Positions 62 to 62,552 of a DNA stretch of 64,000 nt are shown here, in pieces. Made by a program: the position numbers and the translations under genes. The DNA is from Fibrobacteria bacterium. Its GTDB lineage: Bacteria; Fibrobacterota; Fibrobacteria; UBA5070. Positions within the stretch are counted from its first letter, which is position 1; each line of letters starts with the position of its first letter. The notes under the pieces are model-generated. The model ran no database searches, was not told the origin of the DNA, and saw nothing but the letters and a program-made list of their open reading frames with translations. The stretch lies in the NCBI GenBank assembly GCA_035913415.1, contig JAMIIV010000004.1, positions 57,767 through 121,766 on the forward strand, given 5' to 3'.

Positions 62-1189
62 TCAGCGGCGGTCGAACACGATGTCGTCCAGACCCAGGTA
101 GGAGCTTCCGCTGGTGGCGAGGAACTGGAGGGTCCGCACCCGGAAAGCGAACGCGCTCCAGGTCGAGACCGAGGCGGCGTTCTGCGGTTGCGCCATCAGG
201 TCGGACACCTCCACGCAGGTGTCGGCCCACGCCGCGGACGCGGGGACGTACAACGAGAAGCCGGGGGCTCCCGATGTTGTGTCGGGACCCAGCAGTTCGA
301 CCTTCACCCGGCGGTCGGATCGGTACTGGAAACAGAGGTTCCGACGCGCGCGCAGGTCCATGGCGGGGAACGAGACCTGGGCCGCCACGTAGGACGCCGC
401 GGAGTCGGCCCGGAACGAGAAGGACAGAAAATGACCGACGCGTGCGGCTTCGGTGCGGATGGCCGAGCGCACCGAAAGCGAGTCGGTTCCGGAGGGGTCG
501 AGCAGCGTGGCCACCCGCGGGAAGAGATGCCAACGCGAGGTGCCCGGCCAGGCCTGCGCCAACCGCGGGGTTGGTGGCGAACCTTCGAAGTCGTCCACCA
601 CCAGTGGCAGGGGGCCGGAGGGAAGGGACAGGTTCAGGGAAAGGTCCAGCAGCGAGGTGTTGGCCAGCCGGCCCGCGGGCAGGAAGGCCCCGGAAGGTGT
701 GGCGAATCCCAACCGCGTTCCCTCGGGAACGAAGCCTTCGATCGTCCAGTTGCCGGAGTCGTCCACCGCTGAGGCGGTGAAGGACGACTCCGCCAGGGCA
801 CGCGACCCGGGGAACGTCGCGTGGTCCAGCCACCGGGCCTGGAGCGAAAGGGCTGGTTGGAGGGACAGCTCGAGGGTGGTGGCGTCGCTTATCCGACGGA
901 TCAGGGATCCGCGCGTTCCGGACGAATCGCGCAGTTCCACGAACGCCCATGCATTTCCTTCGAGATCGATCCAGCCGTCGGCACGCTGCAGCAGCCTTGT
1001 GGTGTCCGTGGGGCGCTGTGTCGCGGTGTCCCAGCCGTGGGCTCCACGGGCGGTCACGCCCATCACCACCCGACCGGATTCGTCCAGGGGAAGCAGTCCG
1101 TTGCCGGTGGTGGTACTTTTTCCGGCCACCTGGTCGTCGGCGCATCCCAGAAGGAGCAGGGCGGACAGGAAACCGATCAGGCGTTTCAT
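62..1189 (-). CDS. lipoprotein of unknown function (375 aa)
   Basis: Internal Met of the 704-aa ORF 62..2176. N-terminus MKRLIGFLSALLLLGC is a signal peptide with a lipobox. The start forms an ATGA overlap with the stop of the upstream 1186..2010 gene. The upstream part of the long ORF is R/P/G-rich and overlaps that gene out of frame. Confidence 0.6.
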   Translation of the reverse strand: MKRLIGFLSALLLLGCADDQVAGKSTTTGNGLLPLDESGRVVMGVTARGAHGWDTATQRPTDTTRLLQRADGWIDLEGNAWAFVELRDSSGTRGSLIRRISDATTLELSLQPALSLQARWLDHATFPGSRALAESSFTASAVDDSGNWTIEGFVPEGTRLGFATPSGAFLPAGRLANTSLLDLSLNLSLPSGPLPLVVDDFEGSPPTPRLAQAWPGTSRWHLFPRVATLLDPSGTDSLSVRSAIRTEAARVGHFLSFSFRADSAASYVAAQVSFPAMDLRARRNLCFQYRSDRRVKVELLGPDTTSGAPGFSLYVPASAAWADTCVEVSDLMAQPQNAASVSTWSAFAFRVRTLQFLATSGSSYLGLDDIVFDRR

Positions 1190-2010
1190 GGGTCGACCTC
1201 GGGCAGGGCGCTGAGGGGAAACAATTGCAGGTTCAGTTGGTAGATGCGGTCGGACACCGTGCCGTCGTCCACCAGTCGCGCCACGTTCTCCTGGAACTCC
1301 TTCACCAGGATCTTCAGGTCGGAGACCTGCTCGGCGTTGATGTTCATGGTCATGGTGCCGATTTCGCGCACCGAGGGTGGGTCTTCCCGCAGGGACCGGG
1401 CCGCCAGTTCGAGGGTGGCGGCCTGGAAGCCGCGGATGGCGGGATCGGCGTGGTCTTCCCCCGAATGCAGATGGACGTAGGGGATGCGCCATCCTTCGGG
1501 TTCGCGGATCGCCAGCCCCAGGCGCTGCAGCAGATCCAGGGCGGCCGAGGCTTCGTCCGCCGTGATGGCTGGACGCAACGCCGCAGCCAGGGCCGCAGGG
1601 TCGGTTTCGTGGGGCCGCATGTCCAGCAGGTTGCGCAAGGCCACCGCGTGCCAGCTTGCGAAGAACGTGCGCCGAGCGGTCGACAGCTCCACGTAGCCCA
1701 CGCCGCGCAGCTTCACGAGCCGATCGTGGATGGCCTTGGCCTCGGTGTCGTTGCGCGCCTTGTTGAAGGCGACCAGGCATTCGAAATACTCCCGTTCCCC
1801 CTCGTCCATGCCCAGAAGCCTGGCGAAGCGCGGGATCTGGTCGTCGACGATGTGCGCCTTCTTCTGGAACAGGCGCGTCACGTAGCTGGAGTCCATGCCC
1901 ACGCGGTTGCCGATGTACCGGTAGCTGAAGTACGAAGCGATCTTGCGGCGCTCTTCGTAGGCGTCCTTCAGGAATTCCCGGTAGTCGTCGTAGGCTTCGA
2001 TGCTGGGCAC
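1186..2010 (-). CDS. TIGR02147-family protein (Fibrobacter succinogenes paralogous family), HTH-like
   Basis: 274-aa ORF with a GTG start. N-terminus ...YDDYREFLKDAYEERRKIASYFSYRYIGNRVGMDSSYVTRLF resembles, from memory, the TIGR02147 family, with a helix-turn-helix-like segment. Divergent from the glycoside hydrolase at 2180. Confidence 0.6.
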   Translation of the reverse strand: MPSIEAYDDYREFLKDAYEERRKIASYFSYRYIGNRVGMDSSYVTRLFQKKAHIVDDQIPRFARLLGMDEGEREYFECLVAFNKARNDTEAKAIHDRLVKLRGVGYVELSTARRTFFASWHAVALRNLLDMRPHETDPAALAAALRPAITADEASAALDLLQRLGLAIREPEGWRIPYVHLHSGEDHADPAIRGFQAATLELAARSLREDPPSVREIGTMTMNINAEQVSDLKILVKEFQENVARLVDDGTVSDRIYQLNLQLFPLSALPEVDP

Positions 2011-2179
2011 GGATCCTCCACGGATGAGTATCGCAAACTATCGCCGCCGGGGCCAAGTCGGGTTGACTTGGGGGCAAGGGCCGCTGCTTGACGCGACAGC
2101 GGCTCCTGGAAAAACCGCAGGAGCCGTGACAGGCTTCGGTGGTATCCTCATGGTCGGCCATCATCCGAGGAACCACTCC

Positions 2180-3955
2180 ATGCGCTCCACCCTACTTGCC
2201 GCCTCCGTCTGCTCCCTGCCCTTGGCCGCTGATGCCTGGCGCAGCAGCCTGTATCCCGAGAATTGGACCCCCCCGGTCCAGGATTCCTTCTACACCGACA
2301 AGTTCCTGCAGGATTATTCGTATGCCGGATACCGGCTCGGCGACCCGATCCCGGCGCAGGTGCCCGGACCGGTTCTCGACGCTTCGAAGGCCCCGTTCCT
2401 CGCCGATGCTTCCGGCAAGCTGGACGCCACTGCCTCCATCCAGAAAGCCATCGATTCGGCGACCAAGGCCGGGGGAGGGGTGGTGTTCCTGCCCGCAGGA
2501 ACCTATCGCCTTTCGGTCGGCGGGACCGCCACCGCGGCACTCCAGATCGGTTCATCCCGCGTGGTGCTGCGGGGCGCGGGGGCCGGCAAGACCTTCCTGC
2601 TGAACACCACCACCTCGATGCGCAGCAAGGCCGTGATCAAGGTGTCGCCCTCGGTCGGGGGCACCTGGACCTCCATCCCCTCCTCGAAGGTCCTCGTGAC
2701 ACGCGACCTTCCCTCTCCCACGCGCACCATCCCGGTGGCCAGCACCGCCGCGTTCAAGGTCGGCGACTGGGTGATCGTGCGCCAGAAGATGAGCGAAGCC
2801 TGGATCGCCGAACACAAGGAGCCCGATTGGGCCGGCATGGCCTCCAAGTTCACCGGTGTCGTGTATTGCCGACGGATCCTGTCCATCGATGCCGCGGCCG
2901 GTACCCTCGGGATCGACATCCCCCTCCGCTACGCCTTGCTGGTGCGCGACACGGCCATGGTGTATCCCGCCCCCGCCATGATCGAGGAGGTGGGGGTCGA
3001 GCACCTTTCGCTGGGCAACGTCCAGAGTCCGGTGGCCACCGGGTGGGGTGAAGAAGACTACAACGATCCCGCCAACGGTTCGTACGAGGCCCACGATTCG
3101 TGGCTCCTGAACTTTTCCCGCGTCCGCGATGGTTGGATCCGCGGGGTCGAGACCTACCAGCCTGCGGGGAACACGACGACCGCCCACCTGTTGTCCAACG
3201 GAATCCAGCTCTACCAGACACGCGGCGTCTCGATCGATTCCTGCCACTTCCAGCGGCCGCAATACGGCGGCGGCGGAGGCAACGGGTACATGTACAGGGT
3301 CACCGGGAACGAAAACCTCCTGAAGGATTCCAGGGCCACCCACAGCCGCCACGGGTTCGTCCTGTCGCACATGCTCGCCTCGGGCAACGTGTTCCTGCGG
3401 GCCCACGACAAGGACGGAGGCCGGCAGACGGGGTCGACGGGAAGCGAGAGGACCTCCGGCCGCGGCAACGACCACCACATGCACTTCAGCCACAGCAACC
3501 TCTTCGACAACTGCGTGGCCGAGAACAGCAACTTCCAGGCGGCCTACCGTCCCTACGGGTCGGCGCCTTTGCACAACCTGACCGCCGCGCACTCCACCTA
3601 CTGGAACACGGAAGGGATCGGGACCGATCCGTGGGTGATCCACACCCAGCAGTCGCGCTACGGGTACGTGTTCGGCACGCGCGGGGCCGTCACCGAGGTG
3701 AAGATCACCGAGGCATCGGCCGGTTCGGCCGCGAAGACGGATCCTGTCGACATCGTGGAAGGCAAGGGCCTGGGCGCCACCCTGGTTCCGGCCAGTCTCT
3801 ACGAAGACCAGTTGGCCCGGCGCAAGGCGCGTGAGGCGGTGGGTGTGGCACGTGAGCAGGGTAGTCCTATCGCTCCGACGAACGAGGTGCGCTTCACGGG
3901 CAAGAGCATGCAGCTGGGTGAACATCGTGTCGACGGAGCGCGATTGGCGCCCTGA
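2180..3955 (+). CDS. secreted right-handed beta-helix glycoside hydrolase (pectate-lyase superfamily, GH28/GH55-like)
   Basis: Internal Met of ORF 2000..3955. Signal peptide MRSTLLAASVCSLPLAADA. Motif DATASIQKAIDSATKAGGGVVFLPAGTYRL is typical of Pectate_lyase_3 / GH55-like proteins. GAGGA ribosome-binding site 10 nt upstream. Confidence 0.65.
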   Translation: MRSTLLAASVCSLPLAADAWRSSLYPENWTPPVQDSFYTDKFLQDYSYAGYRLGDPIPAQVPGPVLDASKAPFLADASGKLDATASIQKAIDSATKAGGGVVFLPAGTYRLSVGGTATAALQIGSSRVVLRGAGAGKTFLLNTTTSMRSKAVIKVSPSVGGTWTSIPSSKVLVTRDLPSPTRTIPVASTAAFKVGDWVIVRQKMSEAWIAEHKEPDWAGMASKFTGVVYCRRILSIDAAAGTLGIDIPLRYALLVRDTAMVYPAPAMIEEVGVEHLSLGNVQSPVATGWGEEDYNDPANGSYEAHDSWLLNFSRVRDGWIRGVETYQPAGNTTTAHLLSNGIQLYQTRGVSIDSCHFQRPQYGGGGGNGYMYRVTGNENLLKDSRATHSRHGFVLSHMLASGNVFLRAHDKDGGRQTGSTGSERTSGRGNDHHMHFSHSNLFDNCVAENSNFQAAYRPYGSAPLHNLTAAHSTYWNTEGIGTDPWVIHTQQSRYGYVFGTRGAVTEVKITEASAGSAAKTDPVDIVEGKGLGATLVPASLYEDQLARRKAREAVGVAREQGSPIAPTNEVRFTGKSMQLGEHRVDGARLAP

Positions 3956-3999
3956 CGATCTTCATCGATCCCGAGCTCCGACGAAGGTGTGGAGCTGGA

Positions 4000-4701
4000 T
4001 CAGGGATCGAATCGGGCGACGCCTCGACGTCTGGCATGGAACATTCTGGCTTGAGGACTCCGTGGAGTAAGTGGAATCGCGAGAGTCACCCCGGTCCGTT
4101 CGAGGGTCGACTCGGTTCGGATCTCCACTTGGCGTCCGATCGCCAGAGCGATGGCCGGTACAGCAACGCCAACGGTGACCCCGGCTAGCATACCGACCAT
4201 GCCGTTCCCGATGCATCCCATGCCGTCGCATCCTCCGCGAGTGTCATCGGCGACAGCGATCGCGGTATGGAAGCCTGCATAGGCCCCAGCCAGGCCTCCG
4301 AGAAAGGTGCTGGTCGCAAGAATGGGACGTCCATAGACAAGAAGTGGAAACGACGGGATGAAGCCCCACGCGACCGCTCCGAGGAGCGGAGATTCGGCGC
4401 GGGCCGCGAGCTTCACAAGCAGGATCGTTCCGAGTATGTCCAGGGCCATGATCAACTGAAAGTTGGAATCTGGAATGGCCCATACGGACCGGTCCGCTGG
4501 GGAGGGAGCGTCCAGATGAAGACTTGAGACCTGTGTCGAGGCGCTGTCGGAGATGGATCGACGAGGGATGTGCCCCCCCATTGTGTCTAGTGGCGGAGCC
4601 ATCCTGAAAGAATCCAGGTTGGGTGACTCGAGGATGGGTTTGGTCTGCGCGATCGAATCCACAGCGGCCAAGGTGACGGTGAGGAGTGTTGCGAAAATCA
4701 T
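4000..4701 (-). CDS. small secreted/membrane Gly-rich protein with CxGxGCxGNG motif (paralog 1, glycine-zipper-like)
   Basis: 233-aa ORF. Signal peptide MIFATLLTVTLAAVDSIAQT. Gly-rich hydrophobic C-terminal half containing GGCDGMGCIGNGMVGMLAGVTVGVAV. Clear paralog of the 5775..6302 gene. Confidence 0.5.
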   Translation of the reverse strand: MIFATLLTVTLAAVDSIAQTKPILESPNLDSFRMAPPLDTMGGHIPRRSISDSASTQVSSLHLDAPSPADRSVWAIPDSNFQLIMALDILGTILLVKLAARAESPLLGAVAWGFIPSFPLLVYGRPILATSTFLGGLAGAYAGFHTAIAVADDTRGGCDGMGCIGNGMVGMLAGVTVGVAVPAIALAIGRQVEIRTESTLERTGVTLAIPLTPRSPQARMFHARRRGVARFDP

Positions 4702-4733
4702 GAATCCAGCTTATCACAATGGAATCCGACGAG

Positions 4734-4749
4734 GTTGCCAGTTGGCAAC
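4734..4749. promoter_or_regulatory. perfect 16-bp palindrome GTTGCCAGTTGGCAAC between the divergent paralog-1 and sbtA-like genes (candidate operator)
   Basis: Read directly from the sequence: a 7-bp inverted repeat with a 2-nt spacer, centred in the 100-bp divergent intergenic region. Confidence 0.3.
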
Positions 4750-4800
4750 ACCGAATCTCGATCCGGGGCCGCCGACGGCGCGGCAGGTACCTTGCAGGCC

Positions 4801-5766
4801 ATGGATGTCTCCAGCCTGATCACGAACTTCACGAATCCGGTCCTTCTCTTCTTTGCGTTGGGCATCGTGGCTTCCCGGTTGCGGAGCGATCTGGAGATCC
4901 CCGCGCCCATCGCGAAGTTCCTCTCCCTGTATCTCCTGCTGGCCATCGGCTTCAAAGGGGGGCAGGAGTTGCGGACCAGCGAGTGGAACGCCGAAATCGG
5001 ACTCTCCCTGCTGGCGGGCCTATTGTTGGCCGCCGTGATTCCCGTCCACAGCTTCTTCCTGCTCAAGCGGAAATTGTCCATCCAGGATGCGGCGGCCATC
5101 GCGGCCGCCTACGGTTCGGTCAGCGCGGTGACGTTCGTGTCGGCGGTCGGATTCCTCGAAGGTCGATCCATCGACTTTGGAGGCCACATGGTGGCCGTGA
5201 TGGCCTTCATGGAGTTTCCCGCGATCATCGTCGGGGTTCTGCTGTTGCGCCTCTACGAGCCTGCACCCGCGGACGGCCACGGTGGGGGCGGACTCGGGGG
5301 CGTCCTGCGCCACTCTCTCACCAACGGGAGCGTGGTCCTCCTGGTGGGAAGCCTGGTGGTGGGATTCGCCTCCGACAAACAGATGGCCGAAGGCATCAAA
5401 CCCTTCACCAACGACATCTTCAAAGGGTTCCTCGCCCTGTTCCTCTTGGAAATGGGCATGGTCTGCGGGCGCAGCCTGGCCAGCATCTTCCGCAAGGGTA
5501 TCGTCCCCATCGGGTACGCCGTGGTGGCTCCCCTGGTCCACGGAAGTCTGGTCGCCTGGGGAAGCGGGCTGTTCCTCGACCAGGCAGGAAATCGCTTCCT
5601 TCTGGCTGTGCTGGCCGCCAGCGCGTCGTACATCGCCGTGCCTGCCGCCATGAGGCTTGCCGCCCCGAAAGCCGATCCGGGTCTCTACATCCCGATGGCC
5701 CTGGCGATCACCTTCCCGCTGAACCTCGCCGCGGGGTTCCCGCTGTACTACTACCTCGCCCAGTAG
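4801..5766 (+). CDS. SbtA-like permease (DUF897/Sbt_1 family, Na+-dependent bicarbonate-transporter-like)
   Basis: Internal ATG of ORF 4735..5766. 321-aa polytopic membrane protein. N-terminus MDVSSLITNFTNPVLLFFALGIVASRL is typical of the SbtA/DUF897 family, which has two 5-TM repeats. Confidence 0.7.
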   Translation: MDVSSLITNFTNPVLLFFALGIVASRLRSDLEIPAPIAKFLSLYLLLAIGFKGGQELRTSEWNAEIGLSLLAGLLLAAVIPVHSFFLLKRKLSIQDAAAIAAAYGSVSAVTFVSAVGFLEGRSIDFGGHMVAVMAFMEFPAIIVGVLLLRLYEPAPADGHGGGGLGGVLRHSLTNGSVVLLVGSLVVGFASDKQMAEGIKPFTNDIFKGFLALFLLEMGMVCGRSLASIFRKGIVPIGYAVVAPLVHGSLVAWGSGLFLDQAGNRFLLAVLAASASYIAVPAAMRLAAPKADPGLYIPMALAITFPLNLAAGFPLYYYLAQ

Positions 5767-5774
5767 GGGCCAAC

Positions 5775-6302
5775 CTAGGTCCCCCAACAAGACCAAGCGC
5801 GCTGGCGAGCGAGTCTCTGGAGGCCCGAGAGGATCGGGTCGATGGCGAAGTCCAATCGGACATCGGCCCGATCCCCGGCGGCCCTGGCTTTGGCGTCCAC
5901 GTTTTTGCCGATCTGATAACCCAAGACCGGCAGGAGCACCATCACTCCGACGCCTCCTGCCAAGCCCAAGAGCATCTTGGAGCCGTTGCCGGGGCATCCG
6001 AGCCCGCAGGCATCTCCGCCCCCGCCAAGCAGAATCGCGGTTGGCCCGGCGAGCGCGACACCTGCGATGAAGCCCATCAAACCCAGGGTACCGGCTGCAG
6101 AGCCAGTCTGCCCTGATGCTGAGTGGTTCTGGAACGAACTGCGCCATGCGGGGGTGGGGTTGAATACATCCTCCCCGATCCCGTCCAGAATTGGGCGATC
6201 CAGACGTGCTGGGGTTGAGATCGTGGTTTCGTTGGAATCCGTTGCGAGCATGGTCGAATCGGATGCACCCAAGATGAAGGCAAGAAGTGCGGCGAGAATC
6301 AT
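5775..6302 (-). CDS. small secreted/membrane Gly-rich protein with CxGxGCxGNG motif (paralog 2)
   Basis: Internal Met of ORF 5775..6842, 175 aa. Signal peptide MILAALLAFILGASDSTMLA. Motif GGGGDACGLGCPGNGSKMLLGLAGGVGVMV aligns with paralog 1. Convergent with the sbtA-like gene. Confidence 0.5.
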   Translation of the reverse strand: MILAALLAFILGASDSTMLATDSNETTISTPARLDRPILDGIGEDVFNPTPAWRSSFQNHSASGQTGSAAGTLGLMGFIAGVALAGPTAILLGGGGDACGLGCPGNGSKMLLGLAGGVGVMVLLPVLGYQIGKNVDAKARAAGDRADVRLDFAIDPILSGLQRLARQRAWSCWGT

Positions 6303-6585
6303 GTGTTCAGCATACCCATTTTCATCGGGGCTTGGTTGCCAGTTGGCGTGGTCCACCCCGCAGCGCATCGCCAACACCGGCAGGTTTTCGGTTGGCCTGG
6401 AGGGCGCATTTGTCCGGGTCGATCTTCCCGACTCCTCCCGTATTCGCATCGCCACGGCTTCTGGACGGGTTTTGGCCTCACGCGACCTGCCCGCGGACGT
6501 CTCCTCGGTGTCGCTTCCCTTGGGACATCGCGGGATCGTGGTCGTCTCGTCGGGAAGCCGCGCCGCGAGGTTGTTCGTTCCCTGA
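6301..6585 (+). pseudogene. orphan 94-aa ORF resembling a Por/T9SS-type C-terminal sorting domain (possible remnant of a disrupted cargo gene)
   Basis: In-frame tail of ORF 5977..6585. ...IRIATASGRVLASRDLPADVSSVSLPLGHRGIVVVSSGSRAARLFVP resembles the C-terminal tails of the secreted enzymes at 11944 and 36444. It begins exactly at the cassette border. Confidence 0.25.
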
Positions 6586-6681
6586 GTCGGGTGTGATCCC
6601 CGCACGTGCCGCGGGGCGTACGGGTGGTTAGGATTCACGCCACAAGGTTCAGGGGCGCGACATCGAAAAGCGGGGCAAGAC

Positions 6682-7224
6682 ATGGGCCGGAACAGTCCTT
6701 TCCAAGTGCTGATGCTGGTCGTGCTGTCGGGCTCGATCATGGCCGCGGCCGATGATGCTCTGCGCGATGTCCCGCGCGCCGAAGCCCTCGAACAAAGCTC
6801 CCACCTGGTAGCGGCGCACAACACCGGCAAGCGTGGCTCCATGCGGGAGCGCCAGAAGGAGGGGTACTGGTGCTCCTTCAGCTACGAAGAGTGGGTGCTC
6901 GATTCCGTGGTGCGGGGAGCCTCGCCCTGGAAGGTCGGCGCACGGATCCGAGTCTTCCATGCCGGACAGGACCAGGATTGCTGGCGCGCGAACGAATACC
7001 GCACCAGGGGCATCGACATCGGGCTCATGTTGCCCGTCTACGTTTCGGAGACGAAGCTTCCGAATTCCTACGAACCTGGAGCGCGGGGCATCCTGCTGGG
7101 AAGGCTTCGGGGAACGCGGGATTTCGAGCTGGCTGTCGGGGGGAGCATCGAATCCCCCGACCAGGCGGGCCCCCTGGGACGCGAGTGGGACGGTTTGCAC
7201 CAGGATGCGGCGTCAGATCGCTGA
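6682..7224 (+). CDS. secreted hypothetical protein (180 aa)
   Basis: Signal peptide MGRNSPFQVLMLVVLSGSIMAAADDA. Diverse composition with W/Y/K/E, unlike the spurious R/P/G-rich ORFs nearby. Confidence 0.45.
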   Translation: MGRNSPFQVLMLVVLSGSIMAAADDALRDVPRAEALEQSSHLVAAHNTGKRGSMRERQKEGYWCSFSYEEWVLDSVVRGASPWKVGARIRVFHAGQDQDCWRANEYRTRGIDIGLMLPVYVSETKLPNSYEPGARGILLGRLRGTRDFELAVGGSIESPDQAGPLGREWDGLHQDAASDR

Positions 7225-7261
7225 CATCCATTGTGTCGGAAATTGTCTGCAAGGCTCGGGG

Positions 7262-7774
7262 TCAGGGAGCGTCGAGGCCCTCGGGACGGTAGAGCAGGCC
7301 ATCGTCGATCGTCGACAGCAAAGGGCCCTCCTGCGGAGGGATGCTCCAGGAGCGCTCACGTGTTCCGAGCGTGTCGGTGTCTCCGGGTTCGATGGCCTGG
7401 TGGACATCACCTGAAGGAAGGGCGACGGTGGTGGTGATGGACAAGCCTGTGCCTCGGTTGCCGTCGTTGCGTTTCCAACGTGTCAGCACGAAGCTGGAGT
7501 CCCGCCACTGGAATTCGAGGGTACTGGCTGACGTTTCCCAGGTGCCGGCGTTCATGGCGTGGCAGAGTTCCACCTCGATGCGTCCGGTATCGGTCTCGAT
7601 GGAGTTGAACGGCTCGAACTGGAAGGCCGAGAGAGGGGGCGGGATCAGCGACGTGTTGTCGATCACCACAGTCCAGCGGGCGCCGACGGGAGGCCGCAAC
7701 GCGACCATCAGCCGCCAGGGGTTGGGATTCCAGGGAATGCCGCTGGAAGAATCGATGGCGTATCTCGACAGCAA
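7262..7774 (-). CDS. hypothetical protein (170 aa, TTG start as called; alternative internal ATG)
   Basis: The ORF begins 5 nt after the stop of the 7780..8802 gene. Composition is non-repetitive. The start codon is uncertain. Confidence 0.35.
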   Translation of the reverse strand: MLSRYAIDSSSGIPWNPNPWRLMVALRPPVGARWTVVIDNTSLIPPPLSAFQFEPFNSIETDTGRIEVELCHAMNAGTWETSASTLEFQWRDSSFVLTRWKRNDGNRGTGLSITTTVALPSGDVHQAIEPGDTDTLGTRERSWSIPPQEGPLLSTIDDGLLYRPEGLDAP

Positions 7775-22773: not shown

Positions 22774-23429
22774 CGTGCGGCCCCGCTGGGGAAGGTCGAC
22801 AAGATCACCGTGTCGGCGATGGCGCGACACCGGGCTTCGAGGAAGGCGTCGTCGAAGTTCTCCAGGATGCCCGCGGCAGGCAGGATCCGCGAATAGAGAG
22901 GACGCAGAAGGAAGGTTCCCCACACCATGGAGAACAGGTTGATCAGGATATGGACGGGCTCGACGGTGGGCTTGGCCTCATTCTTGGCCAACTGGTCCGT
23001 GACCCCTGTGAACAGCCGTTTGGCCATCGGGGCCAAGGCCTCCAGAAGGGGGGCGATGTTGCGGCCCCCATCGGACAGCTCCCGGATCATCATGCCCACG
23101 CACTCCGGGTGCTCCCGCAGAACGGTCATGTACGCGTGCACCAGCCTGCGGATCGATTGTTCCGGGGTGCTGTCCGCGGCACTGGTGGCCACCGCGACGA
23201 TGCGTCCTTTCACCATGTCGACGATGGAGCGCAGAACCGTCTGGTAGAGGCCTTCCTTGTCGCGGAAGTGGTAATGCAGCAGGGCCTTGTTGGCCCCCGC
23301 ACGGTCGGCGATCTCCTGCATGCGCGCCCCGCGCAGGCCATTCTCGATGAACTCCGTGCGGGCCGCCGCCAGGATACGCTCCCGGGTTCCGTCGTCCGCT
23401 CCCGTCGCCGTGTTGGGGCGGGGAGTCAT
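22770..23429 (-). CDS. TetR-family transcriptional regulator
   Basis: N-terminal HTH RERILAAARTEFIENGLRGARMQEIADRAGANKALLHYHF is a classic TetR_N domain. First gene of the efflux operon. Confidence 0.85.
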   Translation of the reverse strand: MTPRPNTATGADDGTRERILAAARTEFIENGLRGARMQEIADRAGANKALLHYHFRDKEGLYQTVLRSIVDMVKGRIVAVATSAADSTPEQSIRRLVHAYMTVLREHPECVGMMIRELSDGGRNIAPLLEALAPMAKRLFTGVTDQLAKNEAKPTVEPVHILINLFSMVWGTFLLRPLYSRILPAAGILENFDDAFLEARCRAIADTVILSTFPSGAAR

Positions 23430-23468
23430 GACTGCCCTCCGGTGTGCCCACGACCTTGATTGATTGGT

Positions 23469-23484
23469 TTAACCATATGGTCAA
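23469..23484. promoter_or_regulatory. near-perfect palindrome TTAACCATATGGTCAA (candidate TetR operator)
   Basis: 14 of 16 positions are symmetric. Located 40 bp upstream of the tetR start within the divergent intergenic region. Confidence 0.35.
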
Positions 23485-23514
23485 GATATCCTCCGGTCGA
23501 CCGCGAAGTCAAGA

Positions 23515-23556
23515 GGGAAAACAAAACGCCCTCCCGCGAGATGTCGCGGAAGGGCG
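23515..23556 (-). terminator. rho-independent terminator on the minus strand (13-bp GC stem, then UUUUGUUUUCCC)
   Basis: Minus-strand read: CGCCCTTCCGCGACATCTCGCGGGAGGGCG followed by TTTTGTTTTCCC. Confidence 0.4.
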
Positions 23557-23588
23557 TCGGGACGGAGATGTGGGAGAGGTGCAGCGGA

Positions 23589-23660
23589 TCAGAAGAACCA
23601 AGCGCTCTCGATCGACGTCTGCAGAGCGATCAGAAGCTGGAAGATCTGGATGGTGGCCAT
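23589..23660 (-). CDS. candidate 23-aa hydrophobic small protein MATIQIFQLLIALQTSIESAWFF
   Basis: GGAG ribosome-binding site 8 nt upstream of the ATG. Lies between a sigma-54-type promoter (23692..23712) and the terminator (23515..23556). Not in the ORF track because it is below the size cutoff. Confidence 0.25.
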   Translation of the reverse strand: MATIQIFQLLIALQTSIESAWFF

Positions 23661-23691
23661 GGTAAGTCTCCGTTAGAGGGTTGCTTCATGG

Positions 23692-23712
23692 TGTTGCAGG
23701 AAGCGTGCCAAC
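23692..23712 (-). promoter_or_regulatory. sigma-54-type promoter TGGCACGCTTCCTGCA (-24 GG / -12 GC correctly spaced), minus strand
   Basis: Reverse complement of plus-strand tgttgcaggaagcgtgccaac. Matches the TGGCAC-N5-TTGCW consensus with exactly 10 nt between GG and GC. Confidence 0.4.
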
Positions 23713-29618: not shown

Positions 29619-31013
29619 TCACATGTGGACGGCTTTTCCGATGGCTACCGCCGTGGCGTCGGCGATCACTTCGCTCAGCGTGGGGTGCGCGTGCATGGTG
29701 GCCAGCACGTCCTCGAGGGTGGCCTCGAGGTTCATCGCGAGATTCAGTTCGGCGATGAGTTCCGTGGCTTCCGATCCGACGATGTGCGCGCCCAGCAGCT
29801 CGTGGTGGGTTTCGCCGTAGAGCAGCTTCACGAAGCCGTCGGTGTCGCCGGTGCCCACGGCCTTGCCGTTGGCGATGAAGGGGAACTTGCCGACCTTGTA
29901 GGCGATGCCTTGCTCCTTGAGCTTGCGCTCGGTGGCGCCCACCGAGGCGACTTGGGGCTGCGCGTAGGTGCAACCGGGAACCAGGTGACCCTTGCGGGGC
30001 GTGATGCCGCCATAGATGCCGTCGATGCACTGGCCGGCTTCCCACGAGGCTTCGTGGGCCAGCCAAGGCGGGCCGTTGACGTCGCCGATGGCGTAGATGC
30101 CGGGGAGCGAGGTGGAGTAGTCGGCGTTGGTGCGCACGAAGCCGCGCTCCAGGTCGAGCTTGATGTCGGGTCCCAGGAGTCCTTCCAGACGAGCCTCGAC
30201 GCCCACGGCCACGAGCACCTTCTCGAAGGTGTCGCCGGCTTTGGGAGTCTTGCCTTCGAAGGTGGCCTTGGCGCCGTTGGCCAGGATCTCGAGTCCGGTA
30301 ACCTTGGTGCCGGTGAGGACCTCGATACCGTAGCCTTCGAACTTGCGCTGCAGCAACTTGGAGGAATCTTCGTCTTCGATGGGCAGGATGCTGGGCGCGA
30401 ATTCGACCAGGGTGACCTTGGTGCCGAAGGCGTTGTAGAAGTAGGCGAACTCGACGCCGATGGCGCCCGCGCCGATGATCAGGATGGACTTGGGGCACTC
30501 GGTGAGGGCCAGGGCCTCGCGCGAGGTCATGACCGTCTTGCGGTCGAGCACGATGCCGGGCAGGGTGCGGGGCTTGGCGCCGGTGGCGATCACGGTGTTT
30601 TCGCACTCGAGCTGTTCGGCGGGCGTGCCGTCGGCGTAGGAGACTTCCACCAGGCCGGGGCGCAGGATCGTGCCGGTGCCCTTGAAGGCGGCGATCTTGT
30701 TTTTCTTGAACAGGTGGTCGATGCCCATGGCCATCTTGTCGGCGGCCTTGCGGCTTTTGGCCACCACCTTCGCGAAGTCGAAGCTCACGCCCTCGACCTT
30801 GAATCCGTAGTCCTCGGCGTGCTGCAGGTGGATGGCGAACTCGGCTTGCTTGAGAAGCGCCTTGGTGGGGATGCAACCCCAGTTCAGGCAGGTGCCGCCG
30901 GCGCGTTCCACCTCGACCATCGCGACGCTCTTGCCGTACTGGGCGGCCTTGATCGCCGCCACGTATCCGGCGGGGCCTCCGCCGATGACCACCAGGTCGA
31001 ACTTCTGGGACAT
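29619..31013 (-). CDS. lpdA: dihydrolipoyl dehydrogenase (E3)
   Basis: Internal Met MSQKFDLVVIGGGPAGYVAAIKAAQ. FAD/NAD Rossmann folds and the redox-active CLNWGCIPTK disulfide motif. 464 aa. Confidence 0.9.
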   Translation of the reverse strand: MSQKFDLVVIGGGPAGYVAAIKAAQYGKSVAMVEVERAGGTCLNWGCIPTKALLKQAEFAIHLQHAEDYGFKVEGVSFDFAKVVAKSRKAADKMAMGIDHLFKKNKIAAFKGTGTILRPGLVEVSYADGTPAEQLECENTVIATGAKPRTLPGIVLDRKTVMTSREALALTECPKSILIIGAGAIGVEFAYFYNAFGTKVTLVEFAPSILPIEDEDSSKLLQRKFEGYGIEVLTGTKVTGLEILANGAKATFEGKTPKAGDTFEKVLVAVGVEARLEGLLGPDIKLDLERGFVRTNADYSTSLPGIYAIGDVNGPPWLAHEASWEAGQCIDGIYGGITPRKGHLVPGCTYAQPQVASVGATERKLKEQGIAYKVGKFPFIANGKAVGTGDTDGFVKLLYGETHHELLGAHIVGSEATELIAELNLAMNLEATLEDVLATMHAHPTLSEVIADATAVAIGKAVHM

Positions 31014-31383
31014 TCTGGATCCTTCCGGAAAGCTGCATGTCGCGGCCGTGTGCGGTTCGCGACGGGATTGGACAGAGTCCCAATCTAGTTCGGCAGGCAT
31101 GTTCCGGCTCGTCCTCGTGTTCCGATCCCCAGGTCCGGAAAACCGGATCCTCCAGTCTTTCGCCATGCTCTTTCCGGATCCGCGAATCGACATAGCGCCG
31201 CATCGCCGATGGCGGCGCGGTCGGAGCCTCGCTGATGACAGATTCTGGCAAATGATCCGGATTTCCGGATCCTGTTGGCGACCTGCAACTCCCCATGACC
31301 AAAGGGGTTGCGGCGGAAAGAGACTGTTTCCAACGGCGTTCTCCGTATATCTTTTTGCGTATCAATCTCATTTCGGGAGTCAC

Positions 31384-57984: not shown

Positions 57985-58575
57985 ATGACGGCCACGCAGG
58001 GAATGTTGTACGGAGGCATCGCCGCACTGGCCATCGGTGTGGCCGCGCTGATTGCCGCTCCGGCGATTTCTGCGCCTTCGGGATCGTCTCCTGCACCGGC
58101 CGTCGGGCAAACCAAGCCGTCGGCCGCCCAGGGGCCGGCCTTGAACACGGTACGCTGGAGCCGCCTGGATGCTGCCATGGAGCAAGCGGCCAAGTCGGGC
58201 AAGCCCATTTTTGTCACGGTCTACGCCGACTGGTGTGGGTACTGCAAGTTGCTCGACAAAACCACCTTCGTCGATGCGGGCGTGGTCCAGCTTCTGAACA
58301 ACGGATGGGTGGCGGCCAAACTCAACGGCGAGAGCCAGACCCCCCTCAAACTTCCCAAGGGCAGCCTGACCGAATCCCAATGGGCTTTGGGCAACGGGGT
58401 CCAGGGATTTCCCGCCAATTTCCTGCTCGACAGCAAAGGCAAGCCCTTCGCGGCGGTGCCAGGCTACATCGAGCCCCCGATGATGGCGCGACTGTTGAAA
58501 GACGGTCAAGCCTGGATCAAGGGCGGTGGGCAGGCCAAATTGGGTGATTTCTACGAGTGGGCCGAAAAGCGCTGA
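57985..58575 (+). CDS. thioredoxin-fold (DUF255-like) membrane/secreted protein with WCGYC motif
   Basis: Internal Met MTATQGML... with an N-terminal hydrophobic segment. VYADWCGYCKLLDK thioredoxin-like CxxC motif. Confidence 0.6.
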   Translation: MTATQGMLYGGIAALAIGVAALIAAPAISAPSGSSPAPAVGQTKPSAAQGPALNTVRWSRLDAAMEQAAKSGKPIFVTVYADWCGYCKLLDKTTFVDAGVVQLLNNGWVAAKLNGESQTPLKLPKGSLTESQWALGNGVQGFPANFLLDSKGKPFAAVPGYIEPPMMARLLKDGQAWIKGGGQAKLGDFYEWAEKR

Positions 58576-59650: not shown

Positions 59651-61441
59651 ATGGATCGCAAGACATTGCTGACGCTGGTGGCCGTTACGGTCGCTTTCGT
59701 CTTCTTCACGAGTGACACCTGGCACAAGCTCGTTCGCCGCACCCTCGGACTCCCCGAGCCGGCGAAGATCGAGCAACTCACCGACTCGACCGCCACCGCG
59801 GCCAAGAAGGACACCACCACCCCCAGTCTGGTCGCACCGGCCGGCAGCGACACCTCGGTGGGAACCGACTCCGGTGTCGCTGCTTCCGTTGTGACGGATT
59901 CTGTCGTTCCGGCCCGTTCCATCGTGGTGAACACCCCGCGTTACCGCGTGGTGTTGTCCACCCGCGGCGGGCGCCTGGAAGGCGTGACCTTGCGCGGCGT
60001 GACCTCCCGCGCCGGACGGCACCCCGAGCTGATCCCCCAGGGACGCGGCGGCGCCTTGTCGCTGGAAGTCGCCGACCAGCCTCTGGATGCCAAGGTGTTC
60101 TCCCTCGAGGGCGAAGTCCCCGATTCCGTGACCCTCACCGACAAGGATTCCTTCGACCTGCGCATGGTCTGGAGCGAAGGCGGCAAGGCGGTCGGACGCC
60201 GGTTCCTGTTCCGCGGCGCCTCCGACGGCATCCGTTCCTGGGTGACCACCCAGGGATTCCAGGAACCCGCCCTGCGGTTGTCCTGGAACGCGGGGCTGCT
60301 GCAGGTGGACTCCGCCGAACTGAAGATCCCCTTCGGGCCTCCGCACTTCAACGATCTGGTCTGGCGCGATGCCAAGGAAGTCGCAAGCCACAACAGCAAC
60401 GACTCCAAATCCGCTTCGGGCCCGTTGCGCTGGGTGGGCATCCGTGGACAATACCAGATTGGCCTGGTGCTGTTCGACTCGCTGCGCGAGAAGGTCGACC
60501 TCGACGCCGACACCCTGGCGGCGGTCGATGGTCACGACGAGCGCAGCTACCGCTGGCGCGCCCGCTGGCGCCCCGATGCCGGCATCGACAGCTTCACCAT
60601 CCTGGCGGCTCCGTTGGAAGTGGGGGCTCTCAAGGTCTGGGATGCCGGACTCGAAAAGGTGTTGTTCAACGGCTGGGGCTGGTTCTTCCGCGCCGACATC
60701 TGGTTCCCCCAGTTGTGCCTGTTCGTTCTGTGGATGCTCAAGGCCTTCTACGACCTGATCCCCAACTGGGGCGTCGCGATCATCCTGCTCACGGTGGTCG
60801 CCCGCCTGGCGGTCTTTCCGCTGACCTGGAAACAGGTCAAGCAGTCCAAGCGCATGGCGATCGTGATGCCCGCGCTGAAGCCCCAGCTCGAGGCGCTCAA
60901 GGAGAAGTACAAGAGCGACCCGCGCCAGTTGCAAGTGGAGACCATGCGCGTCTACAACGAGAACGGCGTGAATCCTCTGGCCACCATGGCCGGATGCCTG
61001 CCCCTGTTCCTCCAGATGCCCGTGTTCTTCGCGCTGTACATGGTGCTCGGACGCGCCATCGAGCTTCGCGGTGCGCCGTTCTTCGCCTGGATCAATGATC
61101 TGTCGCAACCCGACGTGATTCTGCCCTTGGTCAAGATCCCCCTCATCTTCCCGTTGGGCATCACCATCCTGCCGCTCTTCATGGCCGGATCGCTGCTTTG
61201 GCTCAACAAGATGACGATCAAGGACCCGCAGCAGCAGGCCCTGGTCTACATGATGCCCATCATGATGCTGGTGTTCTCGGGTTCGTTCCCGTCGGGCCTG
61301 GTGCTGTACTGGACCATTTCCAACCTCTTCTCGGTCCTTCAGACCTGGGTGGTGAACGTGGGGCCGGCTCCGGTTCCCACCGTGGAAGTCCACGGGACCC
61401 CCAAGCCCAAGCCGCCTCGCAAGCCCAAGTCCAAGGGCTGA
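59651..61441 (+). CDS. yidC: membrane protein insertase YidC
   Basis: 596 aa. N-terminal TM helix, large periplasmic domain, and conserved C-terminal 5-TM core (...PLIFPLGITILPLFMAGS...). Confidence 0.9.
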   Translation: MDRKTLLTLVAVTVAFVFFTSDTWHKLVRRTLGLPEPAKIEQLTDSTATAAKKDTTTPSLVAPAGSDTSVGTDSGVAASVVTDSVVPARSIVVNTPRYRVVLSTRGGRLEGVTLRGVTSRAGRHPELIPQGRGGALSLEVADQPLDAKVFSLEGEVPDSVTLTDKDSFDLRMVWSEGGKAVGRRFLFRGASDGIRSWVTTQGFQEPALRLSWNAGLLQVDSAELKIPFGPPHFNDLVWRDAKEVASHNSNDSKSASGPLRWVGIRGQYQIGLVLFDSLREKVDLDADTLAAVDGHDERSYRWRARWRPDAGIDSFTILAAPLEVGALKVWDAGLEKVLFNGWGWFFRADIWFPQLCLFVLWMLKAFYDLIPNWGVAIILLTVVARLAVFPLTWKQVKQSKRMAIVMPALKPQLEALKEKYKSDPRQLQVETMRVYNENGVNPLATMAGCLPLFLQMPVFFALYMVLGRAIELRGAPFFAWINDLSQPDVILPLVKIPLIFPLGITILPLFMAGSLLWLNKMTIKDPQQQALVYMMPIMMLVFSGSFPSGLVLYWTISNLFSVLQTWVVNVGPAPVPTVEVHGTPKPKPPRKPKSKG

Positions 61442-61483
61442 TCGGCAAATCGGGTTTGGGGCCATCGCCCCCCCAATACAAAA

Positions 61484-61519
61484 GCGCCGCGGAGATTCCT
61501 CTCCGTGGCGCTTTGCGTT
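61484..61519 (+). terminator. rho-independent terminator after yidC (10-bp stem with one mismatch, followed by TTTGCGTT)
   Basis: GCGCCGCGGAGattcctcTCCGTGGCGC followed by tttgcgtt. Confidence 0.5.
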
Positions 61520-61577
61520 CCAGGGTAGCCTGAACATAATGCTTGCTCATTTGTTCAGTATTCGGTAGATTCCCCTC

Positions 61578-62552
61578 ATGTCCCCCGCCCCCGATACCCC
61601 TGCCCCGGTATCGTTGCCGCACGATGAATTCTTCAAGGAGATCTTCGGCGACATCGAACACGCACGCGACCTGATCCACGGAATCCTGCCGCCAGACTTG
61701 CTGGAGATTCTCGACCTCGCGCACCTCCAGCGCGAGAATACCTCCTTCCTGACGGCTCAACTCGCCGAAGACTTCGCCGATCTTGTCTTCACGTGCCCGG
61801 TCACTGGAGGCTCGGCCCTGGTCGCGCTGCTTCTGGAGCACAAGAGCTGGGCTCCACGCTATCCACACCTGCAGCTCCTTGCGTACATGCTGGGCGTCTG
61901 GGAACAATCCGAGAAGGATGGACGCCCCCTGCCGCCGGTCATTCCCATCGTTCTGTACAACGGCCAGGGGGCCTGGAAGGTACGCGAATTCTCCACCTGC
62001 TTTCCCCATCTACCGGACCGTCTGCGCGCCTTCCTTCCTGAATTCAGATTCCTGTTGCTTGATCTCGCTCACGAGCCTCTGGCCCCCCTGCGGGAGCGTT
62101 TCCACAATCGCTCCGTTCAGGTGGCCATTGAGCTGATGCGCGCGATCTTCACCCCCACCGAAGTGACCGCTCTGATGCGGCGCCTGACGCCCGCCGACGG
62201 TCCGCCCGACCGCGACCTGGCTTACCGCTTCCTGCGGGTGGTGCTTCGGTATATTTTCACACGTAGCGATGTCGACCAACGCGAAGCCCTGAATCTGGCG
62301 CTCAACCCTGAAATCCGGAGACTGGCCATGACCTTGGAAGAACAGATCCTCCAACGCGGGGAACAGCGAGGCATCCAGCAAGGCCTTGTTCAAGGTCTGG
62401 AGCAAGGCCTTGAACAGGGTCTTGAGCAGGGCCTTGAGCGAGGTGCTCGCGTCGCCAAAATGGAAGATGCCCGAAAGCTGCGCGACCATGGCGTGGCTTG
62501 GGCGATCATCACGGACGCCACGGGTGTGACGCCCGCGGATCTGGAAGACTGA
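61578..62552 (+). CDS. Rpn-family (YhgA-like) recombination-promoting PD-(D/E)XK nuclease / putative transposase
   Basis: N-terminal HDEFFKEIFGDIEHARDLIHGILP matches the Rpn N-terminal motif. C-terminal QGLVQGLEQGLEQGLEQGLERG repeat is typical of Rpn proteins. 324 aa. Confidence 0.75.
   Translation: MSPAPDTPAPVSLPHDEFFKEIFGDIEHARDLIHGILPPDLLEILDLAHLQRENTSFLTAQLAEDFADLVFTCPVTGGSALVALLLEHKSWAPRYPHLQLLAYMLGVWEQSEKDGRPLPPVIPIVLYNGQGAWKVREFSTCFPHLPDRLRAFLPEFRFLLLDLAHEPLAPLRERFHNRSVQVAIELMRAIFTPTEVTALMRRLTPADGPPDRDLAYRFLRVVLRYIFTRSDVDQREALNLALNPEIRRLAMTLEEQILQRGEQRGIQQGLVQGLEQGLEQGLEQGLERGARVAKMEDARKLRDHGVAWAIITDATGVTPADLED

Follow-up and report, generated by a model that had tools for sequence, protein, structure and literature searches.

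The 64,000-nucleotide stretch of the Fibrobacteria bacterium contig JAMIIV010000004.1 analysed here (the window, whose numbering is used for all coordinates unless a relative is named) contains, at positions 3956–6302, the gene of an Sbt_1 (SbtA-family, DUF897) permease lying between two open reading frames (ORFs) that encode small proteins of an orphan family, here named par. The permease (4801–5766, plus strand; 321 amino acids (aa); Pfam PF05982) occupies the centre, is not accompanied by an sbtB partner and has a short linker between helices 5 and 6. The two minus-strand ORFs described in the original prediction are both present: par1 (4000–4701; 233 aa), which represents the long subtype of the family, is divergent from the permease, and par2 (5775–6302; 175 aa) is convergent with it and lies 8 nucleotides (nt) from its stop codon. 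The 99-bp divergent intergenic region between par1 and the permease holds a dyad, GTTGCCA-GT-TGGCAAC (GTTGCC-N4-GGCAAC; 4734–4749), which is a candidate operator, and a second copy with one degenerate arm (GTTGCCAGTTGGCGTG) is found upstream of par2 at 6335–6350, at the edge of an inserted segment. Taken as a whole, the locus consists of an ordinary native transporter gene beside a lineage-specific, rapidly changing family of probable small envelope proteins, with a locally duplicated copy and a candidate operator. The genes and the dyad motif are real, and their pairing is undescribed and confined to one small uncultured clade.

We accept par1 and par2 as distant paralogs on the strength of sequence comparison. 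Pairwise BLASTP aligns them with 33% identity over 55 residues (E 2e-4), a full-length alignment gives 30% identity with the common N-terminus MI(L/F)A(A/T)LL, and a hidden Markov model (HMM) built from par2 and two homologs matches par1 with an E-value of 6e-7 among 6396 six-frame ORFs; the profile–profile comparison by hhalign is weak (probability 24%). The motifs CDGMGCIGNG in par1 and CGLGCPGNG in par2, previously noted as a shared feature, are found as described, and their Cys pair (positions 158/163 in par1, 99/103 in par2) is invariant across the family. When ten members are aligned, only the initiator Met, both Cys of the CGLGC or CDGxxC turn and two Gly are common to all, and the spacing of the Cys pair varies between CxxxC and CxxxxC.

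The family is very small. A word-indexed search returns one 99% twin of par1 and two par2 homologs at 55–60%, the par2 homologs P0003 and P0004 standing at 56–61% identity, and repeating such a search with the family alignment adds no member. Orthologs of par1 at 34–35% identity, which the word-indexed search had overlooked, are found in the relatives L001 and L002 on the contigs of the par2 homologs, and an exhaustive HMMER search over 1.84 billion cluster representatives yields six par representatives in total. The alignment of all 10 members is too divergent to yield a search pattern; a metagenome scan with a pattern for the Cys motif gives 297 matches and no relative, and there are no more par copies within the window. 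Searches of par1, par2 and the family members against Pfam, NCBIfam, PHROGs, PADLOC and PDB sequences give nothing usable, and neither par1 nor par2 matches Pfam at E 0.1. The ratio of non-synonymous to synonymous divergence (dN/dS) is 0.26–0.28 for the orthologous par pairs of L001 and L002 and 0.26–0.62 overall, at about 0.4 for par1 and 0.34–0.40 for par2, and is 0.06 for the permease. These values mark the par ORFs as genuine protein-coding genes on which purifying selection is relaxed, and their distribution identifies them as a clade-restricted orphan family of a narrow uncultured high-GC clade of Fibrobacterota.

Both proteins begin with a signal-like segment. In par2, residues 1 to about 17 are hydrophobic and are followed by an AxA-like site, as judged from hydropathy, and then by a variable, acidic, Pro/Ser/Thr-rich region predicted to form coil. 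A model computed with AlphaFold2 (AF2) from the 10-sequence alignment, with a predicted local distance difference test (pLDDT) score of 51 and a predicted template modelling (pTM) score of 0.25 and too poor for a fold search, places helices at residues 2–13, 69–92, 107–134 and 158–171. A charge-poor, Gly-rich turn with the Cys pair sits between the helices at 69–92 and 107–134, which hold the motifs G77xxxG81xxxA85 and G113xxxG117, and the protein, 15% Gly in composition, closes with a basic tail carrying the terminal helix. The hydropathy profile of par1 indicates the same type of N-terminal segment, about four hydrophobic helices, the CDGMGC turn and a basic tail; its additional hydrophobic helix pair is also present in the L001 and L002 orthologs. 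Since no family member has a Cys in its first 30 residues, and thus no lipobox Cys, the par proteins are predicted not to be lipoproteins. Within the family, conservation is highest in the membrane hairpin and lowest in the disordered linker, and the variable Cys spacing would fit a disulfide stapling the turn, or a thiol switch, better than a fixed metal site.

Glycine-zipper two-helix envelope proteins, represented by the Pfam families Rick_17kDa_Anti and Gly-zipper and by SlyB and OsmB of E. coli, share several of these traits, being small exported proteins with a Gly-rich helical hairpin and GxxxG or GxxxA motifs; export of the par proteins is predicted from their N-termini. Kinship with this group, raised as a question for the two paralogs, is not borne out: none of the 10 members matches the Pfam models Rick_17kDa_Anti, Gly-zipper_Omp or Gly-zipper_YMGG even at E 10. 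Proteins of the SlyB, OsmB and 17-kDa antigen type carry a lipobox Cys, unlike par, and the par proteins differ further by their invariant Cys pair in the turn, their long disordered N-region and their basic tail.

The assignment of the central gene as an SbtA-like permease holds. It matches Pfam Sbt_1 over the full profile (positions 1–308 of 308; E 3.9e-108; 361.8 bits, where the gathering cut-off is 27) and SbtA itself (7cye_A) with an E-value of 1.9e-22 in two stretches, query 7–152 and 172–321, which correspond to both inverted repeats. By homology, the protein is a member of the Sbt_1/SbtA family (Transporter Classification (TC) 2.A.83) and a distant homolog of SbtA. The residues reported for the Na+ and HCO3- sites of Synechocystis SbtA (PMC8352866) were mapped onto the permease by sequence alignment only: the Na+-site backbone positions G111, A320 and S322 are kept as G105, A272 and S274, as are two of the four docked HCO3- ligands (S114 as S108 and S324 as S276), the other two, Y140 and S327, being Met and Ala. 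The likeness to the cyanobacterial SbtA–SbtB pair, in which a Na+-dependent bicarbonate transporter is joined by a PII-like regulator (PDB 7cye/7egk), extends over the full length of the protein and both inverted halves. The differences are an identity of only about 30%, a helix 5–6 linker of about 20 rather than about 60 residues, the lack of an sbtB gene, and a neighbour that is a hydrophobic orphan instead of a soluble PII trimer. The permease may plausibly act on bicarbonate or some other small anion.

Cyanobacterial sbtA1 and sbtA2 usually share their locus with sbtB (PMC13187645). As had been proposed, no gene of this kind adjoins the permease: among the ORFs and Pfam matches at the locus, none of its neighbours (par1, par2, the small orphan gene p180 and a pectate-lyase-like gene) contains a PII domain. 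Nor is a PII-like cluster present among the neighbours of 84 related Sbt_1 loci, and the absence of SbtB is normal for this Sbt_1 subfamily and not peculiar to the locus. Across the loci L005–L083, from Bacteroidota and others, no conserved partner gene was found and a PII/SbtB-like neighbour never occurs; the neighbours there include beta-carbonic anhydrase (6), DUF6671 (5), LysR regulators (4) and rhodopsin (3), the beta-carbonic anhydrase gene adjoining permease homologs of about 60% identity in 6 loci of Bacteroidota. The nearest named genome with a close permease (82%) is a metagenome-assembled genome (MAG) of Fibrobacterota, L004 (JBDKGS01), which has no par gene; other matches, in Bacteroidota and others, stand at about 60%, and a metagenome scan with the permease gives a 100% twin (L087) and otherwise only homologs at about 60%. 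In L004, the gene directly upstream of Sbt_1 (3390–5711 of that locus) encodes a 773-aa protein in which a VTT/DedA membrane domain is fused to a pyridine-nucleotide-disulphide oxidoreductase.

The par genes occur in six lineages: the window, with its twins L003 and L087, and L001, L002, L084, L085 and L086. The window, L001, L084 and L086 share a common context made up of p170, p180, the permease, par, the pectate-lyase-like gene and usually a DUF4423/TIGR02147 gene, and the divergent arrangement of permease and par also holds in L001, L084 and L086. The short contig L002 covers only the par and pectate-lyase side, its permease side not being assembled, and in L085, a more distant relative, par is followed by a Mac/Hexapep acetyltransferase gene instead of the pectate-lyase-like gene. 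The order in L084 and L086 is the 498-aa orphan gene, in some cases an HD gene, the permease and a single divergent par. In L001, the permease is followed by a divergent par2-like gene and then, in tandem, by a par1-like gene; the same tandem, par2-like then par1-like, is found in L002. In the window, par1 holds the ancestral divergent position and par2 lies beyond the permease. No homologous or feature-similar neighbour was found at about 160 other Sbt_1 loci, and no curated family matches the par proteins; the view that the pairing of this permease with small Gly-rich Cys-pair proteins is undescribed therefore stands.

The position of par2 is explained by a local replacement. Alignment of the window with L086 by blastn finds homology at 4664–5769 and 6352–7758 only, and the intervening 582 nt (5770–6351), a lineage-specific segment carrying par2 and its promoter on the minus strand, take the place of about 1.4 kb in L086 that comprise most of the 498-aa gene. 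That gene is intact in L086 (5297–6793) and L084 (3912–5408). What is left of it in the window, on the plus strand at 6352–6585, is the last 77 codons and the stop, 62 of the 77 residues being identical (81%; BLASTP E 2e-37). Given this remnant and the insert beside it, par2 and its promoter replaced about 420 codons of the 498-aa gene. The degenerate arm of the second dyad marks the right-hand junction, homology to L086 resuming at 6352.

The par genes evolve far faster than their neighbours. Relative to the window proteins, the permease is 95% identical in L001, 97% in L086 and 85% in L084, the pectate-lyase-like protein 86.5–96% and the DUF4423 protein 88%, whereas par2 and par1 of L001 reach only 61% and 35%; the neighbours as a set thus stand at 85–97% against 35–61% for par. 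The synonymous divergence (dS) is 0.9–1.8 in par comparisons against 0.1–0.5 in the flanks, and the number of par copies varies from 1 to 2 per lineage. The change is unevenly spread within the gene. L002 and L086 have pectate-lyase genes that are 96% identical at the nucleotide level, and between their par genes (L002 1–1124 against L086 7944–8549) the identity is 97.5% from the promoter through the first 75 coding nt and 81% in the final 113 nt, with a middle of about 330 nt that has no detectable similarity; the second par gene of L002 is missing from L086. The pattern suggests that divergent paralogs have recombined or that alleles have been replaced, together with changes in copy number, at what appears to be a hotspot bounded by conserved genes.

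The region had been described as a cassette of about 58% GC across 3956–6300 that might have been acquired horizontally as a metal- or ion-handling module. Measured over 3956–6302, the GC content is 62.3%, against 66.2% for the window, and only 500-nt intervals at about 4250–5000 fall to 58–59%. The region is among the lowest 1% of intervals of its size, and the window contains four other dips of like depth; 500-nt intervals with 58–61% GC, as low as the dip discussed here, lie at 23300–23700, 30900–31200, 58200–58500 and 60900–62100. The third-position GC content (GC3) of the permease, 0.845, is within the 0.79–0.87 of its neighbours, and its codon usage is native; that of par1 is 0.645 and that of par2 0.705. 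In every relative, par GC3 is 8–24 points under that of the neighbours, and because this recurs throughout, it is a persistent property of par and not the mark of a recent import: the dip comes from the low GC3 that par genes have as a family, and it does not indicate that the DNA is foreign. The window contains no tRNA, its repeats are short and at chance level with no long repeat flanking the region, and the ORFs scanned between 62 and 10851 encode no mobility domain or integrase. The par proteins have no Pfam match to Mer-type (MerT, MerC, MerF) or other metal families, and their neighbours are unrelated to merR, merP and merA. Close relatives, which a recent arrival should largely have left without these genes, carry the permease and par in essentially the same place (L001, L084 and L086). 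With the same chromosomal context in relatives and native GC3 in the permease, the region is not an island; it belongs to the native chromosome of an uncultured high-GC member of the Fibrobacterota and was inherited vertically, and the reading as a transferred metal module is not supported.

The dyad between par1 and the permease was originally described as a perfect 16-bp palindrome; it is indeed an inverted repeat, with 7-bp arms around a 2-nt centre that is not palindromic. It precedes the par1 ATG by 32 nt and the permease ATG by 51 nt. An exact 14-nt repeat, GGTTGCCAGTTGGC, occurs at 4733–4746 and 6334–6347, and both dyads of the window end exactly 32 nt from their own par ATG, the par2 copy having kept one arm exactly and lost the other. 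A GTTGCC-N4-GGCAAC dyad stands at the identical distance in all seven aligned par upstream regions. In L085 it reads GTTGAC-AACT-GTCAAC, with both arms altered and the dyad kept, and a second dyad lies just upstream; positions 1–93 of that locus thus hold two tandem dyads before par, TTGCCATTTGGCA and then GTTGACAACTGTCAAC, the second with a compensatory change in both arms. Since the motif is found nowhere else in the window and is absent upstream of the permease in L004, the dyad is assigned, on this distribution, to par and not to the permease.

The same upstream alignment of seven regions has invariant T, A, C and T columns that form a TAnnCT box 6 nt before the par ATG. In par1 the putative box is TAAGCT (4708–4713, minus strand) and in par2, in the same alignment columns, TATGCT (6309–6314, minus strand). 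A consensus scan finds no canonical sigma-70 promoter. We interpret TAnnCT as a −10-like element that would give a leaderless or near-leaderless mRNA, in which case the dyad centre would fall near −40.5, a position typical of a promoter-proximal activator or repressor site; the dyad is thus probably an operator. FNR boxes, TTGAT-N4-ATCAA, are 5-4-5 dyad operators of a dimeric regulator that are found near −41.5, and they serve here as a lead only. The par dyad resembles them in its TTGxx-N4-xxCAA form and in a centre about 40.5 nt upstream of the presumed transcription start, and differs in its half-site, TTGCC or TTGAC, no gene of the CRP/FNR family having been identified. As the starts of par1 and the permease are only 99 bp apart, a protein bound to the dyad would be expected to act on the permease promoter as well.

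Other readings of the dyad were set aside. A sigma-54 promoter around TGGCAAC was dropped by eye for want of a TTGC at −12 spacing. An intrinsic terminator or RNA hairpin is disfavoured by the lack of a T-run and of an upstream gene on the same strand, and is contradicted by the par2 copy, which loses one arm and keeps the other exactly; no relevant Rfam family or terminator was found at the dyad region. The helix-turn-helix (HTH) protein of the DUF4423/TIGR02147 type is, as a binder of the dyad, speculation only, and it is not linked to the locus in L086.

Several gene starts needed correction. The ORF list began the permease at TTG 4735; ATG 4801 was preferred, because the Pfam match starts at residue 35 of the long ORF, the gene is called at 321 aa in the relatives, and a 2-nt indel falls within 4735–4800 in L001. 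An extended par2 ORF of 355 aa from 6842 was rejected in favour of ATG 6302, on the starts of the relatives and the promoter alignment; its upstream part overlaps the remnant of another gene, which also counts against the longer version. To the left, the DUF4423/TIGR02147 HTH gene (1186–2010, minus strand; E 9e-64) adjoins the gene of a pectate-lyase-fold protein (2000–3955, plus strand). Begun at 2000, the latter has 651 aa and overlaps with the start of the DUF4423 gene; the relatives are called at 591 aa, so its true start is probably ATG 2180. To the right lie two more small orphan proteins without a family match, p180 (6682–7224, plus strand; 180 aa) and p170 (7262–7774, minus strand; 170 aa), which are about 67% identical to their L001 orthologs, the adjacent enzymes being at 87–95%. 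The neighbourhood as a whole is rich in fast-evolving small proteins.

The explanation that we favour, and regard as reasonably probable, is that of a native SbtA-family transporter beside clade-restricted, fast-evolving envelope proteins of the par family. The permease is transcribed divergently from par, with the long-subtype par1 keeping the ancestral position, and a second copy, par2, was inserted with its own promoter just downstream of the permease, at the cost of about 420 codons of another gene. The proteins would start with a Sec-type signal segment, continue with a polar, disordered stretch and a Gly-rich helical hairpin (a single one in par2, two in par1) that carries the invariant CxxxC or CxxxxC pair in a tight turn, and end in a basic amphipathic tail. 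They most likely oligomerise in a membrane through the Gly-rich helices, the Cys pair stapling the hairpin turn or acting on it as a redox switch, and would act as envelope proteins in their own right rather than as obligate subunits of the permease. Each copy would be expressed from a −10-like TAnnCT box 6 nt before the ATG, as a leaderless or near-leaderless mRNA, with a dyad centred about 40.5 nt upstream of the ATG. This dyad would be the site of a dimeric transcription factor that also influences transcription of the permease, which would make par1 and the permease co-regulated neighbours through the shared 99-bp region. For such co-regulation the chances appear evenly balanced; a physical or functional partnership of the two proteins is doubtful.

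Some observations weigh against this account. The predicted topology contradicts itself, as the acidic N-region suggests an outside and the basic tail an inside location although the helices that separate them are even in number, and the AF2 layout from which the hairpin is drawn has low confidence (pLDDT 51). The function proposed for par is a guess from composition, and the promoter, the leaderless start and the operator are all predictions from sequence. The single compensatory change in the dyad is not statistically decisive, as 80 of 500 shuffles reach the same. Finally, all of the relatives are close, so that synteny cannot separate a functional linkage from recent common descent.

A closer bond between the two proteins deserves consideration. 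Small membrane proteins that modulate transporters are known, among them KdpF, AcrZ and MgtS/MgtR, which are mostly of 30–50 aa with a single helix and no signal peptide, and are usually encoded in the same operon as their target. The par proteins are likewise small, hydrophobic and encoded beside a transporter, with possible co-regulation, but they have 150–230 aa, are divergently transcribed and have their own predicted promoter. They could nonetheless be dedicated membrane-embedded accessory or regulatory subunits of the SbtB-less permease, expressed together with it from the common divergent region, and the Cys pair might, for instance, make them a redox or thiol switch. Consistent with such a role, the divergent pair is unbroken in four lineages despite gain and loss of genes on both of its outer sides, the extra par copy of the window has also been placed directly beside the permease, the 99-bp control region is short and its dyad conserved, and a transporter without sbtB and without the long 5–6 loop of cyanobacterial SbtA would need some other control (PMC13187645, PMC8352866). 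Against it, neither the nearest outgroup permease (82%, L004) nor the approximately 160 other Sbt_1 loci are accompanied by a par homolog or a par-like ORF, the dyad travels with par and not with the permease, the par of L085 has a different downstream context, and an identity of 35–61% with mosaic replacement, beside a permease at 85–97%, would be unusual for a tight physical partner. We consider such subunits unlikely, and more speculative still is the full version, in which a membrane-embedded hairpin protein has functionally replaced SbtB in this clade, its Cys pair switches an SbtA-family transporter by redox or thiol chemistry and a dyad-binding factor controls both genes from one 99-bp region. 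A role wholly unrelated to the permease, as diversifying exported membrane-active or surface peptides (bacteriocin-like toxins, or a variable envelope target of phages or competitors), has about the same low probability as dedicated subunits. It would account for the conserved promoter, signal segment and 3′ end around a centre that is replaced between genomes with 96–97% identical flanks, for a par dS above that of the flanks and for the variable copy number; a Gly-rich hydrophobic composition with a Cys pair is also known from class II microcins. The par N-terminus, however, is a hydrophobic Sec-type segment and not the double-glycine leader of class II microcin-like bacteriocins, the locus has no ABC exporter or immunity gene, there is no PHROG or PADLOC match, dN/dS is below 1 in all comparisons, and a conserved hairpin with a variable disordered linker fits relaxed constraint as well as diversifying selection.

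Two further alternatives have far less in their favour. The earlier view of a horizontally acquired, lower-GC cassette of three genes for metal or ion handling can appeal to the place of the region among the lowest 1% of GC intervals, to the Cys pair and to the absence of the par family from all other sampled lineages. It conflicts with the native GC3 of a permease that is 95–97% identical in the same chromosomal context in congeners, with the same low par GC3 in all relatives, with the lack of tRNA, integrase and flanking repeats, and with the lack of any Mer or other metal-family match, the alternation of CxxxC and CxxxxC being atypical of a fixed metal site; we regard it as very improbable. 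That par1 and par2 are chance ORFs in GC-rich DNA is, if anything, slightly harder to credit. Their GC3 signal is weak (0.65–0.70), no database names them and spurious overlapping ORFs are many in this GC-rich window, but their orthologs have a conserved frame with dN/dS of 0.26–0.62, the Cys pair is invariant and the helices conserved across proteins 30–60% identical, and the promoter motif is conserved at a fixed spacing.

The main value of the analysis is corrective, in that a low-GC ‘cassette’ proves to be native DNA, where the dip in composition marks fast-evolving orphan genes and not transfer. It also brings to light a tiny unannotated protein family, with a conserved membrane hairpin and a Cys-pair turn, that is confined to an uncultured high-GC clade of Fibrobacterota. 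Promoter and dyad together form a sharply defined motif whose distance from the start codon is fixed and which gives a hint of leaderless mRNAs in the phylum, and the mosaic alleles and changes in copy number between near-identical genomes suggest a variable component of the envelope. If par does regulate the permease, this would be a new mode of control for SbtA-family transporters that lack SbtB.

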